Virus record (IMG/VR): IMGVR_UViG_2690316175_000006 | DNA: 10,588 nt | Direction: 5' to 3' (one strand) | DNA from: a virus | Lineage: Duplodnaviria > Heunggongvirae > Uroviricota > Caudoviricetes | Shown here: positions 7,687 to 8,188 of the stretch, piece after piece | Numbering within the stretch: the first letter of the stretch is position 1 | Layout: each line of letters starts with the position of its first letter | Notes under the pieces: generated by a model | Told to the model about the DNA's origin: nothing | The model's input: the letters and a program-made list of their open reading frames with translations, nothing else | Database searches by the model: none | Program-made: the position numbers and the translations under genes

Positions 7687-7762
7687 GGCCCTTTAGCTCA
7701 GTGGTGAGAGCGAGCGACTCATAATCGCCAGGTCGCTGGTTCAAATCCAGCAAGGGCCACCA
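7687..7762 (+). tRNA. tRNA-Ile2-like, anticodon CAU (ileX/ileZ-like; formally Met anticodon)
   Basis: 76-nt cloverleaf, loop CTCATAA, T-arm GGTTCAAATCC, CCA end; close to recalled E. coli ileX. Confidence 0.8.
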
Positions 7763-7769
7763 TCACATA

Positions 7770-7846
7770 CCGCCATTAGCTCATCAGGAAAGAGCGCCAG
7801 CCTTCGAAGCTGGCTGCGCGGGGTTCAAGTCCCCGATGGCGGTCCA
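7770..7846 (+). tRNA. tRNA-Arg, anticodon UCG
   Basis: 77-nt cloverleaf, anticodon stem ccagc/gctgg, loop CTTCGAA, CCA end. Confidence 0.75.
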
Positions 7847-7859
7847 TTATCTGCATCAT

Positions 7860-7936
7860 GCGTTGTTAGCTCAGCCGGACAGAGCAATTGCCTTCTAAGC
7901 AATCGGTCACTGGTTCGAATCCAGTACAGCGCGCCA
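7860..7936 (+). tRNA. tRNA-Arg, anticodon UCU
   Basis: 77-nt cloverleaf, anticodon stem attgc/gcaat, loop CTTCTAA, T-arm GGTTCGAATCC, CCA end. Confidence 0.8.
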
Positions 7937-7942
7937 TATTCA

Positions 7943-7989
7943 NNNNNNNNNNNNNNNNNNNNNNNNNNNNNNNNNNNNNNNNNNNNNNN
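7943..7989. other. Assembly gap (47 N) between two near-identical tRNA-Arg(UCU) genes
   Basis: Run of n characters. Confidence 0.95.
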
Positions 7990-7998
7990 CGGTATTCA

Positions 7999-8075
7999 GC
8001 GTTGTTAGCTCAGCCGGACAGAGCAATTGCCTTCTAAGCAATCGGTCACTGGTTCGAATCCAGTACAACGCGCCA
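7999..8075 (+). tRNA. tRNA-Arg, anticodon UCU, second copy
   Basis: Same as 7860-7936 except one acceptor-stem base (G-C instead of G-U pair). Confidence 0.8.
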
Positions 8076-8089
8076 CACTTATTTTCCCT

Positions 8090-8115
8090 GGCTCGCTTTT
8101 GCGGGCCTTTTTTTT
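8090..8115 (+). terminator. Rho-independent terminator after the tRNA array
   Basis: ggctcgc-tttt-gcgggcc hairpin followed by eight T. Confidence 0.65.
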
Positions 8116-8188
8116 AAATGTCTCACAATTCAGACGGTTGACAGTTGTCTGTTTTGCGGGGAGTTTGTTAAAAGAAACTGGCATGGTG

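Follow-up and report, generated by a model that had tools for sequence, protein, structure and literature searches.

Plunkett et al. reportedly found in 1999 that the 933W-type Stx2 phage carries a cluster of three tRNA genes, ileZ-argN-argO. The Stx2-converting phage Stx2a_1447 [AP012536] has, in order, a Q gene, two reverse ORFs, a 198-nt ORF, a DNA methylase gene, ileZ, argN, argO, stx2A, stx2B, a 1938-nt ORF and a holin gene, and such an order is seen in many Stx2 phages. The same late region is found in toxin-free lambdoid prophages of E. coli (O121 strain 201805972 [NZ_CP119441], UTI89 and S88), where it runs DUF968, RusA, antiterminator, small ORF, methyltransferase, tRNA-Ile, tRNA-Arg, tRNA-Arg; in O121 201805972 the tRNA genes are followed by approximately 1 kb lacking protein genes (containing STnc100), then a nanS-p-type esterase, a holin and a lysozyme gene. 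We compared these systems with a stretch of 10,588 nucleotides from the IMG/VR record IMGVR_UViG_2690316175_000006, referred to below as the window. An earlier sequence-only reading of this DNA had stated that a Q / methylase / tRNA layout precedes stxAB in Stx phages, and the comparison bears this out: positions 6500–8560 match 315 phage records, mostly Stx2-converting phages.

The late region of the window begins with a predicted Q-type late antiterminator gene of 273 aa (5194–6015, + strand), recognised by a match to Pfam PF03589 (Antiterm) on the identical product in finished genomes and annotated in RefSeq relatives as 'antitermination protein'; the Q gene of AP012536 is of another type, encoding 113 aa. 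A terminator-like hairpin lies just after it (6096–6115, +), found by consensus scan, and its position makes it a candidate tR'. This is followed by a conserved 65-aa ORF (6240–6437, +; a 198-nt hypothetical protein gene in relatives) with a further terminator-like site at its end (6424–6441), and by a putative N6/N4 DNA methyltransferase gene of 352 aa (6588–7646, +; NCBIfam adenine methyltransferase matches, and PF01555 on the identical product), whose counterpart in the Stx2a phage is annotated 'DNA methylase'. Between the methylase stop codon and ileZ is a sigma-70-like promoter, TTGAAG-17-TATTAT (7649–7677, +), which ends 9 nt before the tRNA gene. The number of promoter-like sites in the consensus scan did not exceed that in shuffled sequences, and the assignment of this one as the tRNA promoter is based on its position, on its conservation (over 107 ileZ copies in IMG/VR, conservation of both hexamers is approximately 90% or more) and on the literature, a start site that apparently drives the tRNAs having been described in the Stx2a phage of strain Sakai (PMC7547250).

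ARAGORN predicts four tRNA genes in the window, all on the + strand, and the Rfam tRNA model scores each of them at 58–72.5 bits against a gathering score of 29. The first, with anticodon CAU (7687–7762), is labelled Met by ARAGORN. However, it differs from the E. coli K-12 ileX tRNA-Ile(CAU) at only about 8 of 76 positions, mostly by paired changes in stems, is much more distant from metT and metU, and is annotated as tRNA-Ile or ileZ in RefSeq and GenBank relatives. By these comparisons it is an ileX-like tRNA-Ile2, predicted to decode AUA with a lysidine-AU anticodon, rather than a methionine tRNA. The second gene is tRNA-Arg with anticodon UCG (7770–7846), named argN after its counterpart in AP012536, and the remaining two are copies of tRNA-Arg(UCU), argO. 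The first of these occupies 7860–7942 (tRNA 7860–7936) and the second 7999–8075. The anticodons and coordinates thus agree with the sequence-only reading, which had described Ile(CAU), Arg(UCG) and Arg(UCU) as rare-codon tRNAs. The types follow one another along the strand of the late transcript in the order CAU, UCG, UCU, as do ileZ, argN and argO in AP012536. Gene order, Ile2 type, position and homology therefore all identify 7687–8075 as the three-gene ileZ-argN-argO array that is standard in lambdoid phages, from which the window differs by the repeated argO.

Directly downstream, a predicted intrinsic-terminator-like hairpin followed by eight T residues closes the array (8090–8115, +; hairpin 8090–8107, with a folding energy of -14.3 kcal/mol and z = -2.9). 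The Stx2a phage has this hairpin too, between its argO and stx2A genes. A narrow pattern for it matched 39 of 119 loci, and an alternative downstream context beginning 'tattca...' lacks the hairpin. The DNA beyond the hairpin is without protein genes but contains a predicted small-RNA gene of the STnc100 family (8152–8341, +; Rfam RF02076, 123.6 bits against a gathering score of 47, full length over model positions 1–206) with a terminator-like site at 8312–8330. The array lies downstream of Q and upstream of nanS-p and the lysis genes, and in the finished S. sonnei locus discussed below it is followed by the same STnc100 element and by nanS-p, holin and DUF1327. The sequence-only reading had noted a terminator, non-coding DNA and an IS after the tRNAs, and all three are there.

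The window agrees with AP012536 in its three tRNA genes, their order and their strand, in the upstream methylase and small ORF, and in the hairpin after argO, at 94–99% identity overall (93.8% for 6096–7936, the methylase and tRNA region). The two differ at the stx site. Window positions 7990–8113 align with AP012536 5354–5477 at 99.2% identity and positions 8119–8209 realign with 6813–6903, 42 nt past the stx2B stop codon, while in AP012536 a 1335-bp segment carrying stx2AB replaces approximately five bases of the window (8114–8118), which lie immediately after the argO hairpin and T run. This fixes the cassette position (8113/8119) to within five bases, and the window runs on there without a break. 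Neither stxA nor stxB follows the tRNA genes: tblastn of Stx2A and Stx2B gave E values no better than 0.4, and blastn of the stx2AB cassette DNA gave no match. The stx site of the window is therefore in its empty form, with nothing inserted.

This empty state is common. The segment 7650–8520 is collinear, in one place and free of gaps, in 317 complete E. coli genomes, and among the matches listed these places are approximately 139 bp shorter than the window, the length of one argO period. We also sampled 120 contigs with an exact argO from IMG/VR, of which 113 extend for at least 400 nt downstream; stx is absent downstream in 104 of these, and in the other nine stx2AB always starts 91–92 nt past argO. 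The toxin-free arrangement is the majority state, and the tRNA array is a general feature of the late module and not the mark of a lost toxin. The suggestion that this is a toxin-less or remodelled cargo site consequently holds for its first half only: the site is toxin-less, but neither remodelled nor unusual. The array, the toxin-free lambdoid late region, STnc100 and IS600 are all already known, and the biological weight of the locus is small, as it represents another copy of a well-described phage tRNA cluster at an empty stx cargo site.

The IS that follows (8520–9657, - strand) displays 99.5–99.8% identity to annotated IS600 copies, encodes a transposase matching the IS3 model NF033516 at 334 bits, and is short by approximately 110 bp at a single N (9658). 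In finished S. sonnei genomes the same IS600 is complete and has a 3-bp target duplication, TCC, on either side. The element is therefore IS600, recently and simply inserted approximately 400 bp downstream of the point equivalent to stx, and that point was not remodelled. The insertion (window 8517–8522; 7791–7796 and approximately 9055–9060 in L131) is present in five of ten NCBI assemblies of this locus and absent from strain 53G (site at approximately 7790 in L134), which has an empty IS600 site (…gctaTCCttccagg…) and is equally without stx. With its TCC duplication it could serve as a lineage marker.

It might be proposed that the site once carried stxAB and later lost it, with IS600 taking part in remodelling of the cargo site, given that related Stx2 phages carry stx2AB at exactly this position and that an IS lies nearby. 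We consider this extremely unlikely, since no stx remnant was detected at either the protein or the DNA level, hundreds of E. coli genomes in the toxin-free state have this very junction, and the IS600 is a simple TCC-duplication insertion some 400 bp further on that is absent from the also stx-free 53G. An IS600-mediated deletion of stx was likewise rejected, as the element inserted simply, duplicating its target, and the identical empty site occurs in genomes free of the IS.

To place the window in finished genomes we looked up the exact methylase protein, which returned ten places in NCBI (L131–L140), most of them in complete Shigella sonnei chromosomes. HE616528.1 among these is the chromosome of S. 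sonnei 53G (PMC5447701). The locus, which we refer to as locus Y, lies at 2.095–2.108 Mb in 53G and at 1.859–1.872 Mb in CP104423.1. Across the ten places it matches the window at 99.9–100% over 1–1434, 99.9% over 3489–7936 and 99.6–99.8% over 7996–8520, and in the five genomes with the insertion the last match continues through IS600 to 9657. Locus Y is bounded and interrupted by IS600 and IS1 in the finished genomes, which suggests a remnant; it appears to be a toxin-free, IS600-eroded lambdoid prophage remnant of S. sonnei, and it is the locus that hosts the array. The toxin-free E. coli prophages are close relatives, the O121 locus being 99% identical over 7999–8520, although, unlike the window, they have only one argO and lack both the gap and an IS600 at this point.

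The remaining segments of the window, 1436–3488 and 9659–10588, come from other loci. Positions 9659–10588 are identical over 930 of 930 bases to a second prophage remnant, locus Z (L141/L144), whose distance from locus Y is 0.67 Mb in CP104423.1 and 0.78 Mb in 53G. The piece 9659–10557 consists of an STnc100 copy lacking its first bases, a predicted iraM anti-adaptor gene (9835–10170, -; NCBIfam) and the first 127 nt of nanS-p (10431–10557), cut by the end of another IS600 copy (10558–10588, +). In finished locus Y, in contrast, a complete IS600 is followed by a second STnc100 copy and nanS-p, with no iraM. A third locus, W (1.98 Mb in CP104423.1), accounts for positions 1436–3269. The three remnants are 0.1–0.7 Mb apart in finished chromosomes.

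Three sites in the window contain Ns, namely single Ns at 1435 and 9658 and a run of 47 at 7943–7989, and as the flanking segments map to loci Y, W and Z in turn, all three are switches between loci. The single N at 1435 joins locus Y (1–1434) to a locus W piece with a 221-aa ORF, a DUF551 ORF and a second hok/sok, and the path returns from W to Y inside the hok/sok repeat near 2981. Because the chain switches locus between them, the two sok matches (887–1062 and 2856–3030) are not true neighbours. An IS600 terminus is present at both ends of the window in mirror image (1–47 and 10558–10588), identified from inverted and direct repeats and facing outward; short-read contigs and scaffolds typically end in this way. 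On the mapping of its segments, the window is thus identified as a short-read scaffold of S. sonnei that chains together pieces of three prophage remnants.

The same mapping bears on the repeated argO, which the sequence-only reading had noted as two copies across a 47-N gap, leaving the copy number unresolved. Both copies and the N run (7943–7989) are present in the scaffold. The two genes differ only at tRNA position 69, which pairs with U4 and is G in the first copy and A in the second. In locus Y there is one argO, preceded by the spacer CTGCATCAT, with A69 and followed by CACTTA, in all ten NCBI loci; this single-argO context recurs in two IMG/VR contigs free of Ns, L128 and L129, and in L129 the sequences from the two sides of the gap overlap by 81 nt. 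The array of locus Z comprises ileZ, a decayed argN, the spacer …CGGTATTCA, and an argO with G69 followed by TATTCA…. The bases beside the gap are those of locus Z: on its left, G at 7929 and 'tattca' at 7937–7942, and on its right 'cggtattca' at 7990–7998, the locus Z end of the argN-argO spacer, where locus Y has A, 'cactta' and 'ctgcatcat', respectively. This signal amounts to approximately nine informative positions, the first 68–69 nt of argO (7860–7928) being identical in the two loci.

We therefore propose that the fourth tRNA gene is very probably an artefact of a collapsed repeat that was traversed twice, and that the actual locus carries three tRNA genes, with argO present once, and is without a gap, a join read from the relatives rather than from the isolate's own reads. 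The scaffold path would run from the upstream part of locus Y through argO into a stub of locus Z downstream sequence, across the 47 Ns to a stub of locus Z upstream sequence, and through argO again into the downstream part of locus Y, such that the first copy would be a chimeric contig end and the second, with A69 and the same context as in L128, L129 and L131–L140, the genuine one. Repetitive tRNA genes upstream of stx are known to break short-read assemblies into contigs (PMC8951638). A single Arg(UCU) gene without a gap, which the sequence-only reading had itself named as the outcome that would tell against it, is found in every finished or N-free relative examined; the extra copy is thus a property of the scaffold rather than of the genome. 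The 47-N gap has no counterpart in any finished genome. The idea that the N run hides a toxin cassette or another masked feature was also rejected, since finished relatives are contiguous here and both flanks come from another locus.

Two further readings of the gap take the sequence at face value. The isolate could carry a genuine tandem duplication of argO, that is, a four-gene array with a spacer of approximately 62 nt that the assembler did not close; both copies do fold as valid tRNAs one base apart, and 47 is not a round number and resembles a distance estimated from read pairs. However, a tandem repeat would place argO-downstream sequence before the right-hand copy, which is instead preceded by the argN-argO spacer end 'cggtattca', and both flanks match locus Z of the same genome. 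Each finished or N-free relative (L128, L129, L131–L140) has one copy and none has a second, a search of IMG/VR and the GTDB species representatives for tandem argO genes 40–70 nt apart gave no match, and 126 loci carrying an exact argO each had just one. The four-gene array is thus neither contiguous in a gap-free assembly of these near-identical relatives nor recurrent in the collections searched, and we regard a real duplication as very improbable.

Alternatively, homologous recombination between the argO genes of loci Y and Z might have given rise to a large rearrangement or segmental duplication in which the hybrid junctions are truly chromosomal. Both kinds of junction, Y upstream with Z downstream and Z upstream with Y downstream, do occur at the gap, and a sister scaffold in the same catalogue (L130, IMGVR_UViG_2681813267_000008) carries a long path from Y upstream to Z downstream. 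This too is very unlikely: the arrays are in direct orientation, such that a single exchange would delete or duplicate approximately 0.7 Mb without setting both junctions side by side, the other joins (1435 and 9658) likewise fall at repeats and contain Ns, and the hybrids occur in no finished genome examined. The Y-upstream/Z-downstream combination was also absent from the finished-genome places returned by the methylase and IraM look-ups, although the long path in L130 may represent a third haplotype that some isolates really have. L130 strings together three ileZ/arg arrays from different remnants, with single-N joins at 2769 and 6012.

If the window is a chained scaffold, as we propose, its value is largely cautionary. 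In Shigella and E. coli, prophage late regions that are nearly identical can become chained in short-read scaffolds, giving false tRNA duplications and false gene neighbourhoods, and L130 shows that the public viral catalogue holds another scaffold of this kind. Naive counts of tRNA copies, or of synteny around stx sites, can be misled by them.

The proposed working of the array is as follows. It would be transcribed from its own conserved sigma-70 promoter (7649–7677), with the transcript ending at the 8090–8107 hairpin and T8 and then being processed into three tRNAs. On induction, Q-modified polymerase would be expected to read past the terminator-like sites at 6096–6115, 6424–6441, 8090–8107 and 8312–8330 into the late genes. 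The tRNAs would supply decoders for AUA (Ile2), AGA/AGG (UCU) and CGA/CGG (UCG), codons that are rare in the host and may be enriched in the phage.

The classical rationale for phage tRNAs is the supply of codons that are rare in the host; on average E. coli uses AUA roughly 4–5 times and AGA 2–3 times per 1000 codons. The phage ORFs of the window use AUA, AGA and CGA at 16, 5.3 and 4.3 per 1000 codons, respectively; in stx2A the values are 47 for AUA and 19 for AGA. Set against the E. coli averages, these figures fit the supply of AUA and AGA decoders, and fit CGA only weakly. Among the ORFs counted, AUA use is highest in the iraM gene of locus Z (54 per 1000).

Arrays persist in more than one IS-eroded remnant of S. 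sonnei, with three genes in locus Y and ileZ plus argO in locus Z. It is conceivable, though in our view improbable, that arrays with their own promoter have been domesticated there to serve AT-rich acquired genes rich in AUA and AGA, such as those of the virulence plasmid. S. sonnei is highly clonal, so that retention of an array says little by itself about domestication, and in locus Z argN has already become a pseudogene.

The argN that lies between ileZ and argO has decayed in locus Z and its relatives in E. coli (L141 7325–7424, - strand; L130 1815–1914; L005 4868–4967), the acceptor and T arms can still be recognised but the anticodon region is disrupted, and neither ARAGORN nor RefSeq calls this gene as a tRNA. 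Locus W carries a different array of four genes (L152 9468–9778, CP104423.1), with anticodons CAT, Arg TCT, Thr TGT and Gly TCC, downstream of a different Q-type gene; S. sonnei thus holds at least three prophage tRNA clusters.

STnc100 is a prophage-borne small RNA related to PasD and frequent near Pas sRNA genes, and in Stx-type phages the pasD and pasA/pasC genes adjoin the sialate-esterase gene (2026 preprint). In locus Y of 53G (L134), two STnc100-family genes lie in tandem between argO and nanS-p (7426–7615, 123.6 bits, and 7893–8102, 161 bits), and the lineage-specific IS600, in the genomes that have it, inserts between them. In the window, a second Rfam match to STnc100 (9621–9809, 81.6 bits) starts inside IS600, whereas STnc100 DNA is present only from 9659. 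From that position the sequence is 99% identical to 8191–8316, and the contig boundary at 9659 coincides with the exact start of this repeat.
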